Positions 43,765-60,838 of a DNA stretch of 64,000 nt are shown piece by piece (position 1 is the stretch's first letter; every line of letters begins with the position of its first letter). The stretch lies in NCBI RefSeq assembly GCF_001677475.2, contig NZ_CP015229.1; one strand, given 5' to 3'. Both the position numbers and the translations under genes were made by a program. The notes beneath the pieces are model-generated. The model ran no database searches and was not told the DNA's origin. It saw only the letters and a program-made list of their open reading frames with translations. The stretch is from Escherichia coli. Its GTDB lineage: Bacteria > Pseudomonadota > Gammaproteobacteria > Enterobacterales > Enterobacteriaceae.

Positions 43765-46062
43765 TTACAGCAACTCAAACTCACCTTTCTTAACGCGCGC
43801 GGAATCGGTGCCGATGAAGACGTTGAACTTGCCTGGCTCGGCGTCATATTTCATCTGTTGATTCCAGAACTTCAGCGCCTCGATATCGATCGGGAAGCTG
43901 ACGGTCTGAGTTTCGCCCGGCTTCAGGGTGATTTTCTCAAAGCCTTTTAGCTGTTTCACCGGGCGACTCATGGAAGCCGTCACATCCTGCAAGTACATCT
44001 GCACTACCGTGGCCCCTTCGCGTTTACCGGTGTTCGTCACCTGCACGCTGGCCGTCACTTTGCCGTCACGCTTCATGGTCGGCGCAGAAAGTTTCACATC
44101 AGAGACGGTGAAAGTGGTGTAGCTCAGACCATAGCCGAACGGATAAAGTGCCCCGTTAGCTTCATCAAAATAACGCGAAGTGTATTTGTTCGGCTTGTCG
44201 GCATTATACGGACGCCCGGTATTCAGATGGCTGTAGTACACCGGGATCTGCCCGACAGAACGCGGGAAGGACATTGGCAGCTTGCCGGACGGGTTGTAAT
44301 CACCAAACAACACATCGGCAATTGCATTACCGCCTTCAGTCCCCGCAAACCAGGTTTCCAGAATCGCATCAGCCTGCTGATCTTCTTTCACCAGCGCCAG
44401 CGGACGCCCGTTCATCAGCACCAGCACCAGCGGTTTACCGGTGGCTTTCAGCGCCGCAATCAAGTCACGTTGGCTTTGAGGAATAGTGATATCGGTACGG
44501 CTGGAGGCCTCGTGCGCCATCCCCTGTGCTTCACCGACCACAGCCACCACCACATCAGATTGTTTCGCGGTTTGCACCGCTTCATCAATCATCTCTTGCG
44601 GCGAGCGCGGATCGACTTTGACCGCTTCTTCATACTGATTCAGGAAATCGATAATGCCTTTGTCACTGGTAACGTTCGCCCCTTTGGCATACAGCACTTT
44701 ACCGTTTTCACCGACGGCATTTTTAATCCCGGTCAGTACGGTCACGGATTGATCGGCAACACCGGCTGCGGACCAGCTGCCCATCACGTCACGTTTACTG
44801 TCCGCCAGTGGCCCAACCACCGCAATGGTGGTCGATTTTTTCAGCGGTAACGTTTCGAGACGGTTTTTCAGCAACACCAGGCTTTCACGCGCCACTTCAC
44901 GCGCTTCTTTGCGATGCAGGCGGCTTTCAGCATTGGTATCCACCGGGTCAGACTCTTTCGGTCCCAAATGGCTGTATGGGTCGTTAAACAGCCCCATATC
45001 ATATTTAACGTTCAGTACATGACGGGCAGCGTCATCCAGCTCTTCCATCGTCACTTTGCCGGATTTGATCAACCCAGGCAGATACTTCGAGTAATACTCG
45101 TCGCTCATACTCATGTTGATGCCGGATTTCAGTGCCACGCGCACCGCATCTTCCGGGTCTGCCGCCGTGCCATGTTTAATCAGCTCTTTGATTGCACCGT
45201 GATCGGAAACGGTGATGCCTTTAAAGCCCCACTGGTCGCGCAGAACATCTTTCAGCAGCCAGGAATCGGAGGTGGCTGGCGTGCCGTTCAGCGAGTTCAA
45301 CGCCACCATCACCGCGCCGCTGCCTGCGTCCAGCCCCGCTTTATACGGCGGCATATAGTCATTAAACAGACGCTGCGGGCTCATATCGACGGTGTTGTAC
45401 TCTTTACCACCTTCTACCGCGCCGTATGCAGCAAAGTGTTTGACACTGGTCATCACCGAGTAGCGATCTGCCGGGCTTTTACCCTGCATCGCTTCCACCA
45501 TGGTTTTACCCATTATTGAGGTGAGATACGTATCTTCGCCAAAACCTTCGGAAGCACGTCCCCAGCGCGGATCGCGCGAGACATCGACCATCGGTGCCCA
45601 GGTCATATTCAGGCCATCATCTGCCGCTTCATAAGCAGAGACACGTCCGACCGTTTTCACCGCATCGAGGTTAAAAGACGAGGCCAGACCGAGGCTAATC
45701 GGGAACACCGTGCGCTGACCGTGCAGCACGTCGTAAGCAAAGAAAAGAGGAATTTTCAGGCGGCTTAATTCCATCACCTGATCCTGCATGGCGCGGATAT
45801 CCTGACGGGTTACGGTGTTGAAAATCGCCCCAACCTGCCCGTCTTTGATCATCTCGCGGATCGCCTCTTTCGGGTTATCCGGGCCGACGCTGATTAAGCG
45901 CAGCTGACCAATTTTCTCATCAACCGTCATTTTCTTAAGCAGTTCGGTGACGAACGCATCCCGTGCTTCAGGCGTTAATGGATGGTTACCGAATAAATCA
46001 TCCGCCAGTGCTGGCTGCAGGGCCAGACTCACCGCGATTCCTACTGAACATAGCCATTTCAT
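43765..46062 (-). CDS. bglX: periplasmic beta-glucosidase (GH3)
   Basis: 765-aa product from Met at 46062 with signal peptide; ORF extends to 46134. Confidence 0.93.
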   Translation of the reverse strand: MKWLCSVGIAVSLALQPALADDLFGNHPLTPEARDAFVTELLKKMTVDEKIGQLRLISVGPDNPKEAIREMIKDGQVGAIFNTVTRQDIRAMQDQVMELSRLKIPLFFAYDVLHGQRTVFPISLGLASSFNLDAVKTVGRVSAYEAADDGLNMTWAPMVDVSRDPRWGRASEGFGEDTYLTSIMGKTMVEAMQGKSPADRYSVMTSVKHFAAYGAVEGGKEYNTVDMSPQRLFNDYMPPYKAGLDAGSGAVMVALNSLNGTPATSDSWLLKDVLRDQWGFKGITVSDHGAIKELIKHGTAADPEDAVRVALKSGINMSMSDEYYSKYLPGLIKSGKVTMEELDDAARHVLNVKYDMGLFNDPYSHLGPKESDPVDTNAESRLHRKEAREVARESLVLLKNRLETLPLKKSTTIAVVGPLADSKRDVMGSWSAAGVADQSVTVLTGIKNAVGENGKVLYAKGANVTSDKGIIDFLNQYEEAVKVDPRSPQEMIDEAVQTAKQSDVVVAVVGEAQGMAHEASSRTDITIPQSQRDLIAALKATGKPLVLVLMNGRPLALVKEDQQADAILETWFAGTEGGNAIADVLFGDYNPSGKLPMSFPRSVGQIPVYYSHLNTGRPYNADKPNKYTSRYFDEANGALYPFGYGLSYTTFTVSDVKLSAPTMKRDGKVTASVQVTNTGKREGATVVQMYLQDVTASMSRPVKQLKGFEKITLKPGETQTVSFPIDIEALKFWNQQMKYDAEPGKFNVFIGTDSARVKKGEFELL

Positions 46063-46257
46063 ATGGATTTTTCTTCCTTTGTTGCCCGACGTGGCAGCGA
46101 AAATGGTGCAAAAACCGTAGTTTGCCATAAGCATGATGGAGAGAGAAAAAGAATGCTCAGTTTATTGTCTGAATTTTCAAAATATTCACTCGCTGAATTG
46201 TCATACAAGGCGCTATTCTAGTTTGTGATATTTTTTCGCCACCACAAGGAGTGGAAA

Positions 46258-47973
46258 ATGTCTTCCATGACAACAACTGATAATAAAGCCTTTTTGAATG
46301 AACTTGCCCGTCTGGTCGGTCATTCACACCTGCTCACCGATCCCGCAAAAACGGCCCGCTATCGCAAGGGCTTCCGTTCTGGTCAGGGCGACGCGCTGGC
46401 TGTCGTTTTCCCTGGCTCACTACTGGAATTGTGGCGGGTGCTGAAAGCCTGCGTCACCGCCGACAAAATTATTCTGATGCAGGCTGCCAATACCGGTCTG
46501 ACCGAAGGATCGACGCCAAACGGTAACGACTATGATCGCGATATCGTGATCATCAGCACCCTGCGTCTCGACAAGCTGCACGTTCTCGGCAAGGGCGAAC
46601 AGGTGCTGGCCTATCCGGGCACCACGCTCTATTCGCTGGAAAAAGCCCTCAAACCGCTGGGACGCGAACCGCACTCAGTGATTGGATCATCGTGTATAGG
46701 CGCATCGGTCATCGGCGGTATTTGTAACAACTCCGGCGGCTCGCTGGTGCAACGTGGCCCGGCGTATACCGAAATGTCGTTATTCGCGCGTATAAATGAA
46801 GATGGCAAACTGACGCTGGTAAACCATCTCGGGATTGATCTGGGCGAAACGCCGGAGCAGATCCTTAGCAAGCTGGATGACGATCGCATCAAAGATGACG
46901 ATGTGCGCCACGATGGTCGTCACGCCCACGATTATGACTATGTCCACCGCGTTCGTGATATTGAAGCCGACACGCCCGCACGTTATAACGCCGATCCGGA
47001 TCGGTTATTTGAATCTTCTGGTTGCGCCGGGAAGCTGGCCGTCTTTGCGGTACGTCTTGATACCTTCGAAGCGGAAAAAAATCAGCAGGTGTTTTATATC
47101 GGCACCAACCAGCCGGAAGTGCTGACCGAAATCCGCCGTCATATTCTGGCTAATTTCGAAAATCTGCCGGTTGCCGGGGAATATATGCACCGGGATATCT
47201 ACGATATTGCGGAAAAATACGGCAAAGACACCTTCCTGATGATTGATAAGTTAGGCACCGACAAGATGCCGTTCTTCTTTAATCTCAAGGGACGCACCGA
47301 TGCGATGCTGGAGAAAGTGAAATTCTTCCGTCCGCATTTTACCGACCGTGCAATGCAAAAATTCGGTCACCTGTTCCCCAGCCATTTACCGCCGCGCATG
47401 AAAAACTGGCGCGATAAATACGAGCATCATCTGCTGTTAAAAATGGCGGGCGATGGCGTCGGTGAAGCCAAATCGTGGCTGGTGGATTATTTCAAACAGG
47501 CCGAAGGCGATTTCTTTGTCTGTACGCCGGAGGAAGGCAGCAAAGCGTTTTTACACCGTTTCGCCGCTGCGGGCGCAGCAATTCGTTATCAGGCGGTGCA
47601 TTCCGATGAAGTCGAAGACATTCTGGCGCTGGATATCGCTCTGCGGCGTAACGACACCGAGTGGTATGAACATTTACCGCCGGAGATCGACAGCCAGCTG
47701 GTGCACAAGCTCTATTACGGCCATTTTATGTGCTATGTCTTCCATCAGGATTACATCGTTAAAAAAGGCGTGGATGTGCATGCGTTGAAAGAACAGATGC
47801 TGGAACTGCTACAGCAGCGCGGCGCGCAATACCCTGCCGAACATAACGTCGGTCATTTGTATAAAGCACCGGAGACGTTGCAGAAGTTTTATCGCGAGAA
47901 CGATCCGACCAACAGTATGAATCCGGGGATCGGTAAAACCAGTAAGCGGAAAAACTGGCAGGAAGTGGAGTAA
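46258..47973 (+). CDS. dld: FAD-dependent D-lactate dehydrogenase
   Basis: 571-aa product from ATG 46258 (GGAGTGG SD); recognised as Dld. Confidence 0.93.
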   Translation: MSSMTTTDNKAFLNELARLVGHSHLLTDPAKTARYRKGFRSGQGDALAVVFPGSLLELWRVLKACVTADKIILMQAANTGLTEGSTPNGNDYDRDIVIISTLRLDKLHVLGKGEQVLAYPGTTLYSLEKALKPLGREPHSVIGSSCIGASVIGGICNNSGGSLVQRGPAYTEMSLFARINEDGKLTLVNHLGIDLGETPEQILSKLDDDRIKDDDVRHDGRHAHDYDYVHRVRDIEADTPARYNADPDRLFESSGCAGKLAVFAVRLDTFEAEKNQQVFYIGTNQPEVLTEIRRHILANFENLPVAGEYMHRDIYDIAEKYGKDTFLMIDKLGTDKMPFFFNLKGRTDAMLEKVKFFRPHFTDRAMQKFGHLFPSHLPPRMKNWRDKYEHHLLLKMAGDGVGEAKSWLVDYFKQAEGDFFVCTPEEGSKAFLHRFAAAGAAIRYQAVHSDEVEDILALDIALRRNDTEWYEHLPPEIDSQLVHKLYYGHFMCYVFHQDYIVKKGVDVHALKEQMLELLQQRGAQYPAEHNVGHLYKAPETLQKFYRENDPTNSMNPGIGKTSKRKNWQEVE

Positions 47974-47975
47974 AA

Positions 47976-48008
47976 ATTACGGATGGCAGAGTATCGCCAT
48001 CCGTAATT
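47976..48008. terminator. bidirectional terminator between convergent dld and pbpG
   Basis: 12-bp stem ATTACGGATGGC/GCCATCCGTAAT with 8-nt loop. Confidence 0.7.
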
Positions 48009-48011
48009 CAC

Positions 48012-48944
48012 TTAATCGTTCTGTGCCGTCTGCCCCGCCGCCGCCATCTGAGCGGCTTTTTGTTTTTTATAGCTCAACGCCGCAGCCGGAACAGGCATCA
48101 CTTTACCGGTCTCAATCCAGGTACGCAGGCGGCTGGCATCGGCAAAATGGGTATATTTGCCAAATGCATCCATCACCACCAGCGCCACCGGTTTATTATT
48201 GATAACCGTGCGCATCACCAAGCAATGCCCTGCGGCATTGGTAAAACCGGTTTTGGTTAACTGAATATTCCAGTTATCGCGATAAACCAGATGGTTAGTA
48301 TTGCGGAACGGCAGGGTGTACGTCGGATTAGAGAAAGTCGCCATATCTTCACGGGTGGTACTCAACTGACCGATCAACGGATATTGTTTGCTGGCAATCA
48401 GCAATTTGGTCAGGTCACGGGCCGTCGAAACGTTATGCACCGACAACCCGGTCGGTTCAACAAAGCGCGTGTTGTTCATTCCGAGCGACTTCGCTTTCGC
48501 ATTCATCGCTTTAATAAAAGCGTTATAACCACCAGGATAATGGTGCGCCAGGCTTGCCGCCGCGCGGTTTTCTGAAGACATCAGCGCCAACAACAGCATA
48601 TCTTTACGGCTGATTTCGCTGTTCAGTCGCACGCGCGAATAGACCCCTTTCATCTCCGGCGTTTGGCTGATATCCACTTTTAGTTTTTCATCCAGCGGCA
48701 GTCGCGCATCCAACACGACCATCGCGGTCATTAATTTGCTGATAGACGCAATCGGACGCACCAGATCCGGGTGGTTCGAATAGATCACTTTGTTGGTATT
48801 CAGATCAACAATCATCGCGCTACCGGAGGCAATTTCCGGTTGTGAAGCGGTGGTAGCGGCTGCCGTTTTCGCAACGGTCTGCGGTGCAAAAGGCACAGCC
48901 AGCATCAGGGCCAGGCTAAATAAAGAAACTCGAAATTTCGGCAT
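48012..48944 (-). CDS. pbpG: D-alanyl-D-alanine endopeptidase (PBP7)
   Basis: 310-aa with signal peptide, SxxK motif (SISKLMT). Confidence 0.93.
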
Positions 48945-49117
48945 GATGAGCATTCAGATAGTGGTTCACGCGCACGGGTTGCGCACCGCCGGAGTAAGGA
49001 TTTACTGAGGCTAGCGACGCCATCATAACGAGCAAAAAGTGCGATCGTCAAAGGAGAATCGTGAGGAAATGCTGCATTGCTGACATTTACGCCAGCAATG
49101 CAACACAAAAGAACTTT

Positions 49118-49705
49118 CTAGAACAAACGATAACCGTAACCCCATAGTATAACGGTAAGGGCGAGCAGCACTTCCAACACCAGCACGCCTATCGCCAGCG
49201 TCGAACTGGAGAAGCTAAGTCCATCCTCTTTGTTGATATTCAGGAAGCTCGGAATACCGAGATAAAGCAGGTAGCCGGTGTAAAACAGCGCCACCGTGCC
49301 GACCAGCGCACACAACCAGACCAGCGGATAAAGCGCCACCAGACCGCTTAAAAACAGCGGAGTTGCAACGTAGCCCGCGAAGACCATGCAGTGCGCAAGT
49401 GATGGACGTTGCGGATAATTGCGCGCCATCCACCAGATGACCCGCCCCATCACCGCGACTCCAGCGAGCATAACGCCATAAAACAGGACAGCCAGCGCCA
49501 GTCCGGTAAACCAGGATAACTTCAGGATAGTGCCATCGCCAAAATTCCAGCCAATCTGTGTAGTGCCAATGAAGGCGCAAATCACCGGAATCGCCGCCAT
49601 CAGCAAAACGTGGTGGGTGTAATGGTGAGAAATCGTTTCGTTTTCGCGATTAATCACCTGCATTTCACGATCGGGATGGGAAAACAGTCCCCAGACATGG
49701 CTCAT
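49118..49705 (-). CDS. yohC: Yip1-family inner membrane protein
   Basis: 195-aa multi-TM protein; recognised as YohC. Confidence 0.8.
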   Translation of the reverse strand: MSHVWGLFSHPDREMQVINRENETISHHYTHHVLLMAAIPVICAFIGTTQIGWNFGDGTILKLSWFTGLALAVLFYGVMLAGVAVMGRVIWWMARNYPQRPSLAHCMVFAGYVATPLFLSGLVALYPLVWLCALVGTVALFYTGYLLYLGIPSFLNINKEDGLSFSSSTLAIGVLVLEVLLALTVILWGYGYRLF

Positions 49706-49874
49706 ACCGCCCCCTTGTTGTGAGTTCATGAACCTGACAGTTCAAGTATAAGTCAGCTTGTGATTATTTTTTGTTCGCTTATGTAATTTGCACCGTCTGA
49801 TGTATGTCCTTTTTCAGCGTGAACCATTCACAGGGTGTATGCTTACAGGCAACCAAAGGGAGACAGACTGGCCT

Positions 49875-50453
49875 ATGGATCTCAATACACTCATCTCACA
49901 ATATGGTTATGCCGCGCTGGTGCTCGGCAGTCTGGCAGAGGGTGAAACCGTGACTTTGCTGGGAGGCGTTGCGGCACATCAGGGATTATTAAAATTCCCG
50001 CTGGTGGTTCTTTCTGTGGCGCTTGGCGGCATGATTGGCGACCAGGTGCTTTATCTGTGCGGACGGCGGTTTGGCGGCAAGCTGTTGCGTCGTATCTCAA
50101 AGCATCAGGATAAAATTGAGCGGGCGCAGAAACTGATCCAGCGCCATCCGTATCTGTTTGTTATTGGCACGCGTTTTATGTATGGCTTTCGGGTCATTGG
50201 CCCGACGCTGATTGGTGCCAGCCAGTTGCCACCGAAAATCTTTCTGCCGCTGAATATTCTCGGCGCATTTGCCTGGGCGTTGATTTTTACCACTATCGGT
50301 TACGCCGGTGGTCAGGTGATTGCGCCGTGGTTGCACAGTCTTGATCAGCATCTGAAACACTGGGTCTGGTTGATTCTGGTCGTGGTTCTGGTGGTTGGCG
50401 TGCGCTGGTGGCTGAAACGGCGCGGGAAGAAAAAGCCGGATAATCAGGCGTAA
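49875..50453 (+). CDS. yohD: DedA-family inner membrane protein
   Basis: 192-aa product from Met 49875; DedA-like. Confidence 0.85.
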   Translation: MDLNTLISQYGYAALVLGSLAEGETVTLLGGVAAHQGLLKFPLVVLSVALGGMIGDQVLYLCGRRFGGKLLRRISKHQDKIERAQKLIQRHPYLFVIGTRFMYGFRVIGPTLIGASQLPPKIFLPLNILGAFAWALIFTTIGYAGGQVIAPWLHSLDQHLKHWVWLILVVVLVVGVRWWLKRRGKKKPDNQA

Positions 50454-50461
50454 AACCATTG

Positions 50462-50529
50462 CCCTGGATAAGGCGTGACATCCGGGGCACCATGCCTGAT
50501 GCGACGCTGGCGCGTCTTATCATGCCTAC
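50462..50529. repeat. REP/BIME element
   Basis: GCCTGATGCGACGCTGGCGCGTCTTATCATGCCTAC and adjacent GGATAAGGCG...CATCCGG palindromic units. Confidence 0.7.
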
Positions 50530-50565
50530 AACATACCCATTGAAATATCCACATATCCCATTGCG

Positions 50566-51327
50566 CTACTCCGGTTTAAACTGCGGATTCGCCAGCATAA
50601 AACCGCCATCGACAATCAACGACTGCCCGGTGGTGTAATTTGCGCCTTCGGAACATAGCCAGACCACCAGACTGGCAATCTCATGCGTTGCGCCGAAACG
50701 CCGCAGGGGAATTGATGGCTCTGCATCGGGCTTCACGTCGCCGTCATCCATGCCGTTCATCGGCGTGGCGATGGCTCCTGGCGCGACCGCATTCACCAGA
50801 ATCTTATGCCTGACCAGTTCGAGCGCCATCGCTTTGGTTAACCCGCCGAGTGCATGTTTAGCGGCGGTGTAGGCGCTGGCATCCGGCAGCGGCGTATGTT
50901 CATGTACCGATGTAATGTTGATGATGCGACCACCTTGCCCCTGTTTCACCATCTGGCGGGCGGCAATTTGCGAGCATAAAAAAGCACCATCGACATCAAC
51001 GGTAAAAATCTTGCGCCACTCATCAAAAGCCATATAAAGAAACGGCGCTTTGGTCATGGCGCCCGCATTATTCACCAGCACATCAATACGCCCCAGTCGT
51101 TGAATGAGTTTCTCCAGCGCCTGCGCACCTTCTGGCAGTTTACCGAGATCCAACTGCACGATCTCCGCACGGACGCCGTGGCTGATTACCTCACGCGCGG
51201 TTTCTTTTGCCCCTTCTTCATCAGAGTGCCACGTAATGCCAATATCAAAACCCTGCTGCGCCAGTAATAACGCGCATTCTTTGCCGATCCCCGAATCGGA
51301 GGCGGTAATTATCGCGACCTGTGCCAT
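50566..51327 (-). CDS. yohF: short-chain dehydrogenase/reductase
   Basis: 253-aa; TASDSGIG Rossmann motif, YTAAK catalytic motif. Confidence 0.9.
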   Translation of the reverse strand: MAQVAIITASDSGIGKECALLLAQQGFDIGITWHSDEEGAKETAREVISHGVRAEIVQLDLGKLPEGAQALEKLIQRLGRIDVLVNNAGAMTKAPFLYMAFDEWRKIFTVDVDGAFLCSQIAARQMVKQGQGGRIINITSVHEHTPLPDASAYTAAKHALGGLTKAMALELVRHKILVNAVAPGAIATPMNGMDDGDVKPDAEPSIPLRRFGATHEIASLVVWLCSEGANYTTGQSLIVDGGFMLANPQFKPE

Positions 51328-51379
51328 CGAGATCTCCACTTAACGCTGAATAAACGTTAAGTATAGAAGGCGCATATCA

Positions 51380-52816
51380 TCAGCGTTTGTAGCCCCCACC
51401 CAGCGCGCCGGTGAGTTGAATGGAGGCATCCAGCCACTGCCCCTGCAAGAGCAGACCGTTCGCCCGTTCACGCAGCGCCGGGATTCTGGCTTCGCTGACG
51501 CGGGAACCAGCAATGATGCCCGCGTTAAAGCGTGCCTGCGCAAGACCTACCACACGCAAGGCATCGCGCTCAATTTGCGCCTGATGCTGGTTTTTCTCCG
51601 CAAGTGTCTGAACCTGACTGGCTGCCCGCGCCACGTCATTCACCGCTTCAACCACCGCTTTGTTGTAGCTGGCGATAGACAAGTTGCTTTCGGCTTTTGC
51701 GATATCGAGGTTGGCGTTAAGACGACCACTATCGAAAATGGGTAGCGTCAGGCCTGCCGTAACGCCCATTTGCTGCGCGGAATGACGGAACAGATCGCTT
51801 AAGTGCAACGCATCCTGTTGCAGGAAGGCCATCAGGTTGATGTCAGGATAAAATGCCGCTTTTGCCGCATCAATAGTGCTTAACGATGACTCAACGTACC
51901 AGTGCGCCGCCTGCAAATCTGCCCGACGGGCCAGTAAGGAGTACCCCAGTTCATCAGGAAGCTGACTTGCCACTTTCGGCAACACGACCGGATTAAGCTT
52001 CAATACCTTTGTCTGGTGATTTGTAAGTGCGCTTAACCGTGCCTCAATAATTTTCATTTTCCCCGCGACATCGTTGAGCTGCTGCAGGGTTTTGCTGGCA
52101 TTAATATCGGTTTCCACACCTTCAACTGAAGAAGTAATCCCGTTCTGATATAGCTGGCGATCGGTGGCGATAATGGTGTTCTGCTCTTTTTCGATTTGCT
52201 GTAAGACAGTGTTTAACGCCGCCTGGGTTTGCCACTCCCAGTACAGGCGGGCTACGCTGCCAGCCAGCAATTGGCGGGTTTGCTCGCGTTCCGCCGCTCG
52301 TGCTTTAACCGTACCCAGGCGAGCAGTTACCTCCGCCCGATTCTTTCCCCAGATATCAAGATGCCAGCCCGCCGTTAAGCCAAAAGTACCGTTGGTGTAC
52401 CACGGACCGGTCGTACCTGCGGCAGGATCGTTCAGAGCAAACGGCCCCATTAACCCTTCTGCAGACATTTTTTGCCGCTCCATATCCGCAGAAAAGTCGA
52501 TCTGCGGACCATCCTGAGTGGCAACTGCCTTCGCCTGGGCTTCAGCCAGCTGAATGCGCTGTTCAGCCACCTGCATATCCGGTGCGTTCTGTAGTGCGTT
52601 ATTAATTAAGGAAGTGAGTTGATTATCGTGATACTCCAGCCACCATTGGCTGTCTGGCCAACCATTTTTCAGCGCCGTGGGTAATGCGGTGTCAACTTGT
52701 GCAGCGGGCGTTTGCTGGCTTAACGCCTGGCGGGTTTCATGCATAGGCGCACACCCGGCCAGCATCAGTAACAGCGGAAAACAGGCGATGGCTGGATAAA
52801 AGGAATCACGATTCAT
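51380..52816 (-). CDS. mdtQ: outer-membrane efflux channel (OprM/NodT family lipoprotein), intact
   Basis: 478-aa product from Met 52816 with lipobox LLMLAGC; uninterrupted here (I recall the K-12 copy as a pseudogene). Confidence 0.8.
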   Translation of the reverse strand: MNRDSFYPAIACFPLLLMLAGCAPMHETRQALSQQTPAAQVDTALPTALKNGWPDSQWWLEYHDNQLTSLINNALQNAPDMQVAEQRIQLAEAQAKAVATQDGPQIDFSADMERQKMSAEGLMGPFALNDPAAGTTGPWYTNGTFGLTAGWHLDIWGKNRAEVTARLGTVKARAAEREQTRQLLAGSVARLYWEWQTQAALNTVLQQIEKEQNTIIATDRQLYQNGITSSVEGVETDINASKTLQQLNDVAGKMKIIEARLSALTNHQTKVLKLNPVVLPKVASQLPDELGYSLLARRADLQAAHWYVESSLSTIDAAKAAFYPDINLMAFLQQDALHLSDLFRHSAQQMGVTAGLTLPIFDSGRLNANLDIAKAESNLSIASYNKAVVEAVNDVARAASQVQTLAEKNQHQAQIERDALRVVGLAQARFNAGIIAGSRVSEARIPALRERANGLLLQGQWLDASIQLTGALGGGYKR

Positions 52817-53039
52817 GGGGGAATAATCAGGTAAGAAAAGGTGCGCGGAGATTACCGTGTGTTGCGATATATTTTTTAGTTTCGCGTGGCAATACATCAG
52901 TGGCAATAAAACGACATATCCAGAAAAATATACACTAAGTGAATGATATCTTCCGATTTATCTTAATAGTTTATGGATAACGGCAAAGGGCTTCGTTTTT
53001 TCCTATACTTATTCAGCACTCACAAATAAAGGAACGCCA

Positions 53040-53123
53040 ATGAAAATTATACTCTGGGCTGTATTGATTATTTTCCTGATTGGGCTACTGGTGGTGACTG
53101 GCGTATTTAAGATGATATTTTAA
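53040..53123 (+). CDS. yohP: 27-aa small membrane protein
   Basis: ATG 53040; translation MKIILWAVLIIFLIGLLVVTGVFKMIF; not in supplied ORF track because it is under 60 aa. Confidence 0.7.
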   Translation: MKIILWAVLIIFLIGLLVVTGVFKMIF

Positions 53124-53149
53124 AATTAATTAATGTCATCAGATCCGAA

Positions 53150-54800
53150 AATAACGAGAATATTTCAGTCTCTCATCCTGTTGCGCTCCTGTCATGTGCA
53201 TTGCTTCATATAATCACTGGCGCAAGGAACGCGCAGGGGGCGGCCAATCGCCGCCGCCCCCTGCACCCCCGGGCTCTGGCGAACAAAATCGCCGCTGCGC
53301 GGTGCCCTCGGCTTATCCCTTGCGGCTACCGGGTCGGGCGCGAGGTAACATATATGGACGCTCCCGGAATGCAATGCTTTCTTCAGTTATGTAATAAAAC
53401 GGGTAGGTGCAGCCATATATCCGGTTTCTGATGGGATTTTTATCCCGAACCATGATGAAATCCGCCAGGCAGGTACCAATCATCCTCTGCGGGCTAACTT
53501 GCCCTTGTTACCTCTCGGTGTATCCTGCCTGCGGTCTTACCTGTTTTGCCATCTTCTGAAGTCACCTGCACCTACCAGGACGTTAACTTTTTTTCAGCAC
53601 CTCGTCAGATTGACTGACCTTGTGTCAGGCGAGCTGCCGAGGTTGATATTCAGTATTGTGTGACAATATTGACCACATGATCCTCGCTGTTTTTGCCGCC
53701 ATGGCGACAACAGCTACATTGTAGTGCTTCCGCTCAAGGAGTCCCTGAAGCCAGGAATTCTCCTCAACCGCGCCGTTTCGGTTGACCCAGGCGGTAAGTG
53801 CGCGTGCGCCGTGAACCAGCAGGTATCGGAAATATCCATCTCCACGTTTGCTGATCCCTCCCAGTTGTGTTTCCCGCCGCTGGAATGTTCCTTTGGTGTC
53901 AGCCCCAGCCATGAAGCGAACTGCTTTGCGGTACTGAATTGTCGGGCATTACCCACTGCTGCTACCACATAAGTGGCCGTTAGCATGCCAACCCCCGGGA
54001 TCTTGGCCATTCTCTGGCAGGCTTCCTGCGTTCTATACCAGGAGGCCAGAGCTTCTTCTACCTGTTTAACTTGTTCTTCAAGTTCCCGGATATGTTTAGA
54101 CTGTCTGTAGATGCTGGTTCTGACAAAGGGAGATAAACCATTTTCGCCATCCTCCAGAATGGCTGGCAGCTCACGGGTTAAATGGTTTTGTCCGGCCGCA
54201 ATCGTAATACCAAACTCAGCAAGTGTGGCTCTTAAACTATTGGCACAGGCAATCCGCTCACGGATAAGTATTCCCCGTTCAGTGTGTAACGCTAAAACGG
54301 CCTGCTGCTCTTCGGTTTTTATCTGAACAAAACGCATATTCGGACGGGTTACCGCTTCGCAGATTGCTTCAGCATCTGCTGCATCCGTCTTGTTCGTTTT
54401 CACATAAGGCTTCACATACTGCGGAGGTATGAGTTTTACCTCATGACCATAGCGGGTGAATAATCGCGCAAAATAATGACTGGATGAGCAGGCTTCCATG
54501 CCAATCAGACAAGGTTCCAGTTGAATCACAAACTGAACAAACTTAGCCCGGGTGAGCTTTTTACGCAAAATAGTATGGCCTTCATGATCGACACCATGAA
54601 GCTGAAAAACGTTCTTTGCCAGGTCGATACCAAGAGTTGATACTTTCATGTGGACGCTCCTAATTTTTCAGGACGTATTGCAACGATCCAGTCTGGTACT
54701 TTGATACCGTAAAATCTGGAGCGTCCATCTCATTATCCCTGTAAAACGCGCCCTCAGCCCACATCCATGTGGGCTGCCCCGGCCTCCAGGGAACGCCTCG
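53150..54800 (-). mobile_element. IS110-family insertion sequence (boundaries approximate)
   Basis: Contains DEDD-type IS110-family recombinase reading frame (53625-54649) flanked by ~120 bp upstream and ~450 bp GC-rich structured sequence downstream; as far as I recall, not present at this position in K-12. Confidence 0.6.
53625..54649 (-). pseudogene. IS110-family transposase/recombinase with frameshift
   Basis: N-terminal 311-aa ORF (53714-54649) carries conserved ...GLTPKEHSSGGK then goes out of frame; C-terminal motifs (LGGISKRGDGYFRYLLVHGA...) continue in the overlapping ORF 53625-53912; frameshift near 53867. Confidence 0.7.
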
Positions 54801-54879
54801 GCGATTTTGGCGCCACCAAACAACCGTGCGGCCTATTGATAAAGAGTTAACACATTGTCAAAAAACATCACTATGGTTT

Positions 54880-55827
54880 TTAGAGTTTCTCGATATCAAT
54901 TACCTGAATAGCCCTTGCAATATCAGGGGAATTATTCAACACCCGAACATGCTGAAATAATTCCGTTGCTTCATCGTATTCTTTACGCAAATAACTCAAC
55001 CACTGTTTAATCCGCGCAACGTGATATAACCCGGTATCGCCCTGCTTTTCCAGACGGGTATATTTTTGCAGCAAAGCAACCACCTCCGGCCACGGCATTC
55101 GCGGTTCGTTATATTTTACCACCCGGCTCAGGTTGGGAATATTGAGTGCCCCGCGACCAATCATCACTGCGTCACAGCCGCTGATCGCCATGCATTGTTG
55201 CGCACTCTGCCAGTCCCAGATTTCACCGTTGGCAATCACCGGAATATTCAGCCGCTGGCGAATCTCGCCAATCGCCTGCCAGTCAATATGCTCCGCGCGG
55301 TAACCCTGCTCTTTTGTCCGCCCATGTACTACCAGCTCCGTAGCGCCAGCCTGTTGCACCGCATCGGCGATTTCAAATTTCTTCTCACCGCTGTCCCAGC
55401 CCAGACGCACTTTTACGCTGACGGGCAAATGCGCTGGTACAGCTTCACGCATCGCTTTGGCACCCTGGTAGATGAGTTCAGGATCTTTGAGTAACGTCGC
55501 GCCGCCGCCGCTACCGTTAACCGTTTTCGACGGGCAGCCGCAATTGAGATCCACGCCCCAGGAACCTAACTCCACCGCACGGGCGGCGTTCTCTGCCAGC
55601 CATTGAGGGAACTGACCTAACAACTGCACGCGCACTAGCGTACCGGAAGGTGTCCGGCTGGCGTTTTGTAGCTCAGGGCAAATGCGATGAAAGACTTTTA
55701 CCGGCAGCAGTTGATCCACCACGCGGACAAACTCGGTGATGCACAGATCGTAGTCGTTAACTTCGGTCAGCAATTCACGCACCAGAGAGTCGAGTACACC
55801 CTCCATCGGTGCCAGTAACACACGCAT
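54880..55827 (-). CDS. dusC: tRNA-dihydrouridine synthase C
   Basis: 315-aa product from Met 55827; DUS-family TIM-barrel motifs. Confidence 0.93.
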
Positions 55828-56029
55828 ATCATCACCCGCAAAAAAATGAGGCGCTATGTTAGCGCCTATGGTCAGCGGATTAAAGGTCTGCAAAGAGGGA
55901 TTGCTGCAAACTGCATTCCCTCTCTATGCTTGATGTATGCCTGAGTTCGCTGCTCATTGCGTAATGCCCGGGAGCGAAAAAATAAGCGCTGATTTCTTAA
56001 TGTGATCGGTAGCACGTTTTACGAATTAA

Positions 56030-57156
<1,127 letters not shown>

Positions 57157-57158
57157 AA

Positions 57159-57230
57159 TTTGCGATGCGTCGCGCATTTTTGATGTAAGTTTCACGCGTT
57201 GCATAATTAATGAGATTCAGATCACATATA
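57159..57230 (+). promoter_or_regulatory. cdd promoter region with CRP-like sites
   Basis: TGCGATGCGTCGCGCA and TGATGTAAGTTTCACG resemble CRP half-site dyads (TGTGA-N6-TCACA) upstream of cdd, consistent with known CRP/CytR control. Confidence 0.5.
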
Positions 57231-57285
57231 AAGCCATAACGGGTTCGTAAACTGTTATCCCATTACATGATTATGAGGCAACGCC

Positions 57286-59281
<1,996 letters not shown>

Positions 59282-59439
59282 TATTTTCTCTTTTCTGTTA
59301 ATTATTGAGAATAATTATTACTTCACTCAATAAGCTGCGGATATAACATTCTGAACCGCAGCTATTTGTGAATCCTTTCACAGTTTAAATTTCCCCACAT
59401 GCTTAGCCTTAATATCAGCACGCAATATTTATACTCTAA

Positions 59440-59560
59440 ATAATTCGAGTTGCAGGAAGGCGACAAGTGAGTGAGTCCCCAGGAGCTTACATAAGTAAGT
59501 GACTGGGGTGAGCGAACGCAGACGCAGCACATGCAACTTGAAGTATGACGAGTATATTTA
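59440..59560. repeat. ERIC (IRU) element
   Basis: Core GAGTGAGTCCCCAGGAGCTTACATAAGTAAGTGACTGGGGTGAGCG with flanking imperfect inverted arms (CGAGTTGCAGGAAGG... / ...CTTGAAGTATGACGAG). Confidence 0.8.
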
Positions 59561-59599
59561 GCGTTCGCCTTAATTACTCATAGCATTAAGGAAGATCAC

Positions 59600-60838
59600 A
59601 TGCCGCAACAAAATTATCTGGATGAACTCACTCCGGCTTTTACGCCTTTACTGGCGATTAAAGAAGCCTCTCGCTGCTTATTATGTCATGACGCTCCCTG
59701 TAGTCAGGCTTGCCCGGCACAGACCGATCCGGGGAAATTTATTCGCTCAATCTACTTTCGTAATTTTAAAGGCGCTGCCGAGACAATTCGTGAAAATAAT
59801 GCCCTCGGTGCCGTTTGTGCCAGAGTGTGCCCGACGGAGAAATTATGCCAAAGCGGTTGTACCCGTGCCGGTGTTGATACTCCCATTGATATCGGTCGCT
59901 TACAGCGTTTTGTTACTGATTTTGAACAACAAACTGGGATGGAAATTTATCAGCCCGGTACTAAAACGCTCGGCAAAGTCGCCATTATTGGCGCGGGTCC
60001 TGCCGGATTGCAGGCCAGTGTGACACTGACAAACCAGGGTTATGACGTCACGATCTATGAGAAAGAAGCACAACCCGGTGGCTGGTTGCGTAACGGCATT
60101 CCGCAATTCCGGTTACCGCAATCAGTACTGGATGCAGAAATCGCCCGTATTGAAAAAATGGGCGTGACCATTAAGTGCAATAACGAAATCGGTAAAACAC
60201 TCACCCTGGAGCAGCTGAAAGCGGAAAACCGCGCGGTACTGGTCACTGTGGGGTTATCGAGCGGTTCGGGGCTACCACTGTTTGAGCATAGCGACGTTGA
60301 GATTGCCGTCGACTTCTTGCAACGTGCACAACAGGCGCAAGGCGATATCAGCATTCCACAAAGCGCATTAATTATCGGCGGCGGTGATGTCGCGATGGAC
60401 GTAGCCAGCACGCTGAAAGTTCTCGGCTGTCAGGCAGTAACTTGCGTAGCGCGTGAAGAGTTAGATGAGTTTCCGGCAAGCGAAAAAGAGTTTGCCAGCG
60501 CCCGGGAGCTGGGCGTTTCGATCATTGATGGATTCACGCCAGTAGCCGTGGAAGGCAATAAAGTCACGTTTAAGCATGTACGGTTACCGGGCGAACTGAC
60601 GATGGCGGCAGATAAAATTATTCTCGCCGTCGGTCAGCATGCCAGACTGGATGCCTTTGCGGAGTTAGAGCCACAGCGTAACACCATCAATACACAAAAT
60701 TACCAGACCCGCGATCCGCAAGTCTTTGCTGCTGGCGATATTGTTGAGGGGGACAAAACCGTGGTCTATGCCGTGAAAACCGGGAAAGAAGCCGCCGAGG
60801 CGATTCATCACTATTTAGAGGGAGCTTGCTCATGTTAA
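59600..60838 (+). CDS. preT: NAD-dependent dihydropyrimidine dehydrogenase subunit PreT
   Basis: 412-aa; Fe-S cysteine clusters and FAD/NAD Rossmann motif (IIGAGPAG). Confidence 0.93.

Follow-up and report, generated by a model that had tools for sequence, protein, structure and literature searches.

The mdtQ gene of Escherichia coli, formerly yohG, is a described gene; the occurrence of intact copies, its name, the fold class of its product, its pseudogene status in K-12 and its core conservation are all known already from databases and a 2025 review (PMC11762307). The review counts mdtQ among the core genes of E. coli even though it is labelled a pseudogene, and describes it as independently encoded. 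As far as PMC11762307 and PMC9241588 relate them, the phenotypes of mdtQ knockouts are mild and concern puromycin, acriflavine and tetraphenylarsonium chloride. TolC has been described as the dominant duct of E. coli (PMC5615136).

Here, we analysed the mdtQ locus in a 64,000-nucleotide stretch of E. coli DNA from assembly GCF_001677475.2 (contig NZ_CP015229.1), hereafter the window. The segment at 51380-52816 is, with high confidence, an intact wild-type mdtQ, encoding a lipidated OMF of the TolC superfamily and the NodT subfamily. We describe below the reading frame and its product, the state of the gene across E. coli, and the pumps for which MdtQ might serve as a duct.

Results

An uninterrupted mdtQ reading frame in the window

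The mdtQ frame was defined on the minus strand by ORF listing and base-level reading, and comprises 1437 nt (478 codons plus the stop), from the ATG at 52816-52814 to the TGA at 51382-51380. The features used in this analysis are the following.

51380..52816, minus strand: mdtQ (yohG) CDS, an OMF lipoprotein of the NodT/OMF family (ORF, NF008524, two Pfam OEP stretches)
52751..52816, minus strand: lipoprotein signal peptide, codons 1-21, with lipobox Cys22 (direct reading; Ala at +2)
52665..52669, minus strand: A5 run (TTTTT on the plus strand), gene nt 148-152, intact here (alignment of window, K-12 and SK1144)
52817..53039, no strand: mdtQ-yohP divergent intergenic region, 223 bp, presumed mdtQ promoter region (alignment with K-12 and the related loci L003 and L004)
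50566..51327, minus strand: yohF, SDR oxidoreductase of 253 a.a. (ORF; Pfam adh_short_C2 at 200 bits; synteny)
53040..53123, plus strand: yohP, gene for a small membrane protein of 27 a.a., divergent from mdtQ (ORF; K-12 annotation)

Neither the translation nor the alignments to the family model and orthologues revealed a frameshift or an internal stop within 51380-52816, and the gene was gapless and collinear when aligned with the mdtQ copy of SK1144, an E. coli allele annotated as intact. By our own estimate, a frame of this length would remain open by chance with a probability of about (61/64)^478, roughly 1e-10. A first-pass annotation of this DNA had reported a continuous 478-codon frame, while allowing for an overlooked frameshift; the frame was confirmed as 478 uninterrupted codons followed by TGA, and the base-level check found no such frameshift. 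The ORF lister proposed a longer form of 508 a.a., starting from a TTG at 52906, and a 508-a.a. version of MdtQ is used in some deposited annotations. We rejected this start, because the signal peptide would then be internal and the family model as well as every orthologue start at MNR(D/N)S.

The encoded protein matched the MdtQ equivalog model, NCBIfam NF008524, with a score of 1018.1 bits (cutoff 650), and the match extended over the full length of both (protein 1-478 on model 1-478 of 478), in agreement with the identification as mdtQ made in the first-pass annotation. The cutoff of the NodT OMF subfamily model TIGR01845 was also passed (271.6 versus 210.05 bits), and Pfam PF02321 OEP was detected in two stretches (104.9 versus 22 bits). 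The second-best NCBIfam match was the MdtP model NF007390, which at 349.3 bits stayed under its cutoff of 597, and the mdtNO context is absent here. TolC proper was ruled out, with TIGR01844 type_I_sec_TolC reaching 53.1 bits where its cutoff is 225.15; the window MdtQ is TolC-like in fold or at the superfamily level only, and is not a TolC orthologue.

The gene order yohD-yohF-mdtQ-yohP-dusC is the same in the window, K-12, SK1144 and O169:H41, and PF25659 YohP was called at the position equivalent to yohP in the related loci L003 and L004 (the latter from GCA_018682865.1). The exact window protein has already been deposited as MdtQ of E. coli (e.g., ANO89916.1), and was found on 34 contigs, one of them of 5.5 Mb.

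The N-terminus, MNRDSFYPAIACFPLLLMLAGC-A, consists of a short charged N-region (M1-N-R-D), a hydrophobic core and the lipobox L19-A20-G21-C22. The Cys22 codon lies at 52751-52753 of the window and the +2 residue is Ala. C22 is invariant across the alignment of 127 MdtQ family members, and a helix was placed at residues 6-20 in the structure model described below. Judged from its residues, the N-terminus is a standard signal of an outer-membrane lipoprotein, which substantiates the lipoprotein signal noticed in the first pass.

Predicted fold and assembly of MdtQ

From 583 matches at E <=1e-30 among 50%-identity representatives, we built an alignment of 127 sequences. C22, P79, R298, P324, P359 and G473 were invariant in this alignment, and all six are kept in the window MdtQ. 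AlphaFold2 run on the 127-sequence alignment gave a model of the MdtQ monomer with a pLDDT of 89.9 and a pTM of 0.86; a model from a shallow alignment of 20 close orthologues (pLDDT 38) was discarded. The model contains strands at residues 105-116, 139-153, 325-336 and 348-357, and long helices of 35-67 residues at 158-224, 230-265, 365-431 and 437-472, so that the predicted MdtQ protomer is a canonical two-repeat OMF fold.

In a Foldseek search against the PDB, the best hit was VceC (1yc9; E 1.5e-23, TMt 0.88), followed by CmeC, CusC, OprN, OprM, OprJ, SilC and MtrE with TMt values of 0.77-0.84; TolC reached 0.72-0.79 (0.73 for 1ek9). All significant scores in the PDB belonged to OMFs. A sequence search of solved structures likewise found VceC, with an E of 4.7e-39 over MdtQ residues 51-477.

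Based on established OMF knowledge, the MdtQ precursor would be exported by Sec and acylated at Cys22, and signal peptidase II would then remove its signal peptide. With Ala rather than Asp at +2, the lipoprotein would be delivered to the outer membrane through the Lol system. Three protomers, each contributing four beta-strands and long alpha-hairpins, would then assemble into a 12-stranded barrel together with an alpha-helical tunnel in the periplasm, and the tunnel would dock on the membrane-fusion protein of an inner-membrane pump to act as its exit duct. We infer that MdtQ is expressed and forms trimers; channel activity is likewise what its sequence, predicted fold and selection would lead one to expect.

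Prevalence of intact mdtQ in E. coli

In K-12 MG1655, the gene carries a pseudogene annotation (b2139); its 1436 bp make it one nucleotide shorter than the window mdtQ. The alignment of the two contained exactly one gap, the reduction of A5 to A4 at nt 148-152, and 42 substitutions. With the A4 run, the reading frame changes at codon 50 and translation ends after 69 a.a. Past the lesion, the +2 frame of the K-12 sequence still encodes MdtQ, with five amino-acid differences from the window. The first-pass annotation had described the K-12 allele as disrupted, and had named an intact K-12 copy as the finding that would speak against its reading. The alignment and the b2139 annotation bear this description out, with K-12 frameshifted and the window mdtQ intact.

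We then assessed how widespread the intact state is. Of the 5426 complete E. coli genomes, 5420 contained the gene, and in 5390 a single uninterrupted segment covered 80% or more of its length. An intact 69-mer spanning the A5 site was matched exactly in 4573 of the 5426 (about 84%), and the K-12 68-mer with A4 in 355. All of the 40 A4 matches listed look by name like K-12 laboratory derivatives (MG1655, DH5alpha, C600, J53, etc.); the plant isolate USML2 carries an mdtQ allele identical to that of K-12. Intact mdtQ is therefore the majority state in E. coli and K-12 is the outlier. The earlier suggestion that this strain may retain a functional TolC-like channel is supported, with channel function predicted from sequence, fold and selection, although an intact copy is unremarkable as the E. 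coli norm.

Full-length orthologues of 478-479 a.a. were found in E. albertii (94% identity) and in Salmonella and Citrobacter (80-82%), indicating that intact mdtQ is the ancestral state. Pairwise dN/dS values among five distinct alleles, those of the window, SK1144, O169:H41, K-12 (repaired) and ETEC1703 (repaired), ranged from 0.035 to 0.063, and mdtQ is under strong purifying selection. Studies of MdtQ function should accordingly use a strain with an intact allele, or K-12 with the A5 run repaired.

Lesions other than that of K-12 were also detected. ETEC1703 carries a K-12-like allele, flagged as frameshifted in RefSeq, in which A5 is intact and a T is deleted at gene nt 845; the idea that all 1436-bp alleles bear the K-12 lesion was rejected on this ground. 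In STEC379, mdtQ is truncated at the N-terminus in association with IS1, and a 435-a.a. allele present on 43 contigs has an in-frame deletion of 43 residues (244-286). For isolates of S. Typhi and Paratyphi A, independent truncations of mdtQ are described in PMC9241588. The gene thus seems dispensable and is lost now and then.

Host lineage and an IS110-family element beyond yohP

Over 7437 bp, the window showed 100% identity to contig ABOXQW010000001.1 of GCA_033692955.1; its identity to GCA_018682865.1 was 99.97%. Among the 5426 complete RefSeq E. coli genomes, the best identity was 98.0% for mdtQ and 97.4% for window positions 44000-60000. For positions 1-25000, the best identity was 95% at 88% coverage, with about 12% lacking a counterpart in the best-matching genomes. 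These low best identities to complete genomes point to a somewhat divergent lineage labelled E. coli as the host.

An IS110-family element of 1385 bp (53350-54734, minus-strand orientation) is inserted between yohP and dusC, in a stretch rich in REP sequences that corresponds to the TRIP1c locus of PMC10888264. Its junctions read GGGAT|AATGAG... and ...CCATATAT|GTTACC, and the empty site in K-12 reads GGGAT|GTTACC. Several complete E. coli genomes also carry an IS110-family transposase between mdtQ/yohP and dusC, in one of them under the RefSeq name "IS110 family RNA-guided transposase". In the window, the transposase gene (53625-54649, minus strand) is split into ORFs of 311 and 95 a.a. by a missing G near 53868-53869. 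The broken version is shared by GCA_033692955.1, and the otherwise identical transposase of GCA_018682865.1 is intact at 341 a.a. We considered whether the element disturbs mdtQ and rejected this, as the element is situated on the far side of yohP, with a distance of at least 534 bp to the mdtQ start codon downstream of it, and leaves the spacer untouched.

Expression signals and the downstream yohF gene

In the 223-bp mdtQ-yohP spacer, a simple sigma-70 promoter scan found no site above chance, and reading of the sequence upstream of the mdtQ ATG disclosed no clear Shine-Dalgarno sequence. The spacer differs from that of K-12 by one base, and its features are common to the K-12, L003 and L004 sequences, with nothing specific to this strain.

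On the other side, yohF shares the strand of mdtQ and begins 52 bp past its stop codon, and a terminator scan between the two genes found no terminator-like site; yohF may be co-transcribed with mdtQ. In a metagenomic homologue with 59% identity to MdtQ (P0121), an SDR gene is located 49 bp downstream, which suggests that mdtQ and the SDR gene could constitute a conserved two-gene unit.

Gene context of MdtQ homologues and candidate pumps

No pump or adaptor gene adjoins mdtQ. The gene context of homologues was surveyed for the six nearest non-orthologous clusters (P0125-P0129 and P0131), among which P0126 was uninformative, its contig, like that of P0121, being too short to reveal pump genes. 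P0127 (41% identity), P0128 (36%) and P0129 (36%) each occupy the final position in an operon that encodes, in this order, YtcA, an AaeA-type MFP, a FUSC protein and the OMF. On a short contig, P0125 (41%) comes immediately after a FUSC gene, and P0131 (39%) is flanked by an MFS gene and the gene for an EmrA-type MFP.

The YtcA-MFP-FUSC-OMF operons reside on unrelated metagenomic or genomic contigs (L012, L013/L014 and L015), and their layout is that of E. coli ytcA-mdtNOP.

Among the FUSC/PET-type pumps of E. coli, AaeAB and YdhJK are not known to have a dedicated duct, and are candidate partners of MdtQ. The gene neighbourhoods of the homologues, together with MdtP as the best non-self family match, suggest that MdtQ may be an orphan MdtP-like OMF for pumps of the FUSC/PET type or the EmrAB type rather than for RND pumps. 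Put more narrowly, its partner might be an adaptor of the AaeA/MdtN or EmrA type that belongs to a ductless FUSC/PET-family or MFS pump and not to an RND system, a proposal that we consider possible but doubtful.

Discussion

The intact frame could in principle be an artefact, either of an assembly error that masks a frameshift, with the true allele broken as in K-12, or of a chance ORF. Sequencing errors generally tend to fall in homopolymer runs, of which the A5 at 52665-52669 is one, and nothing beyond this general liability was found in favour of an artefact. Against it, the independent assembly GCA_033692955.1 agrees with the window at every position over 7437 bp, the mdtQ of GCA_018682865.1 is identical to that of the window, and both the recurrence of the same protein on 34 contigs and the exact A5 site in 4573 complete genomes are hard to reconcile with an error, so that the probability of an artefact is negligible. 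A weightier alternative is that the frame is open and the gene nevertheless cryptic, poorly expressed or silent with nothing measurable, in which case "functional channel" would claim more than an open frame can demonstrate. The failure to find a promoter-like site above chance or a Shine-Dalgarno sequence before mdtQ fits this idea, as do the description of the mdtQ promoter as experimentally unconfirmed (PMC11762307), the repeated loss of the gene in K-12, ETEC1703, STEC379, the deletion alleles and Salmonella Typhi, and the dominance ascribed to TolC (PMC5615136). However, a dN/dS of about 0.05, together with the full length kept across Escherichia, Salmonella and Citrobacter, the retention of every invariant family residue in the window MdtQ and the exact intact site in about 84% of E. 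coli, argue for a gene in use, since purifying selection on MdtQ requires expression somewhere. We thus regard a cryptic mdtQ as unlikely, and an intact, wild-type gene as the preferred reading.

The third alternative concerns not the state of the gene but its role. MdtQ might mainly be the exit channel for FUSC/PET metabolite pumps of the AaeAB/YdhJK class, possibly acting with YohF, and "multidrug" would then be a historical label. A FUSC gene precedes the OMF gene in four of the six nearest non-orthologous clusters, with the complete YtcA-MFP-FUSC-OMF operon present in three of these, and the best-scoring E. coli paralogue is MdtP of the mdtNOP operon. The close spacing of mdtQ and yohF (52 bp, no terminator) and the SDR gene behind the 59%-identical homologue point in the same direction. 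On the other hand, this support is purely contextual and comes from homologues with identities of 36-41%, and one of the neighbour sets belongs to the MFS/EmrA type. Moreover, VceC, the closest solved structure, serves an EmrAB-like MFS pump. We consider this role conceivable, though at low confidence. Its most specific version, in which MdtQ would be the missing duct for both AaeAB and YdhJK, co-expressed with YohF and with its role masked by the frameshifted K-12 allele, appears quite improbable. The FUSC-pump context of the nearest relatives of MdtQ provides a hypothesis that is cheap to test.

Comparison with known systems

With respect to structurally characterized OMFs, MdtQ shares its fold (TMt 0.77-0.88) and an N-terminal Cys lipidation motif with VceC (1yc9), OprM, CusC, CmeC, OprN and MtrE. 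The homology between MdtQ and these solved NodT-type OMFs covers the whole mature protein, with E values of 1e-39 to 1e-18 and identities of only 19-25%. They are encoded beside their pumps and their substrates are known, whereas mdtQ has no adjoining pump gene. TolC (1ek9) is not lipidated, unlike the lipobox-bearing MdtQ. Within E. coli, MdtP has a lipoprotein OMF architecture like that of MdtQ; it belongs to the FUSC-linked mdtNOP operon, whereas mdtQ stands without an adjoining adaptor or pump.

At the level of the locus, K-12 MG1655 b2139 is orthologous to the window mdtQ; the two share their flanks and are 97% identical in nucleotide sequence, and b2139 lacks one A of the A5 run that the window copy keeps and reads through. 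Other E. coli MdtQ alleles show 97-99% protein identity to the window MdtQ. Compared with the MdtQ of SK1144, the window protein has three substitutions, R244L, A271V and A278V, and L244, V271 and V278 all sit in non-conserved alignment columns. The closest described system is MdtQ/YohG of E. coli itself (NF008524; UniProt Q8X659 in O157:H7), with which the window copy agrees as the same gene, of the same length and with the same neighbours.
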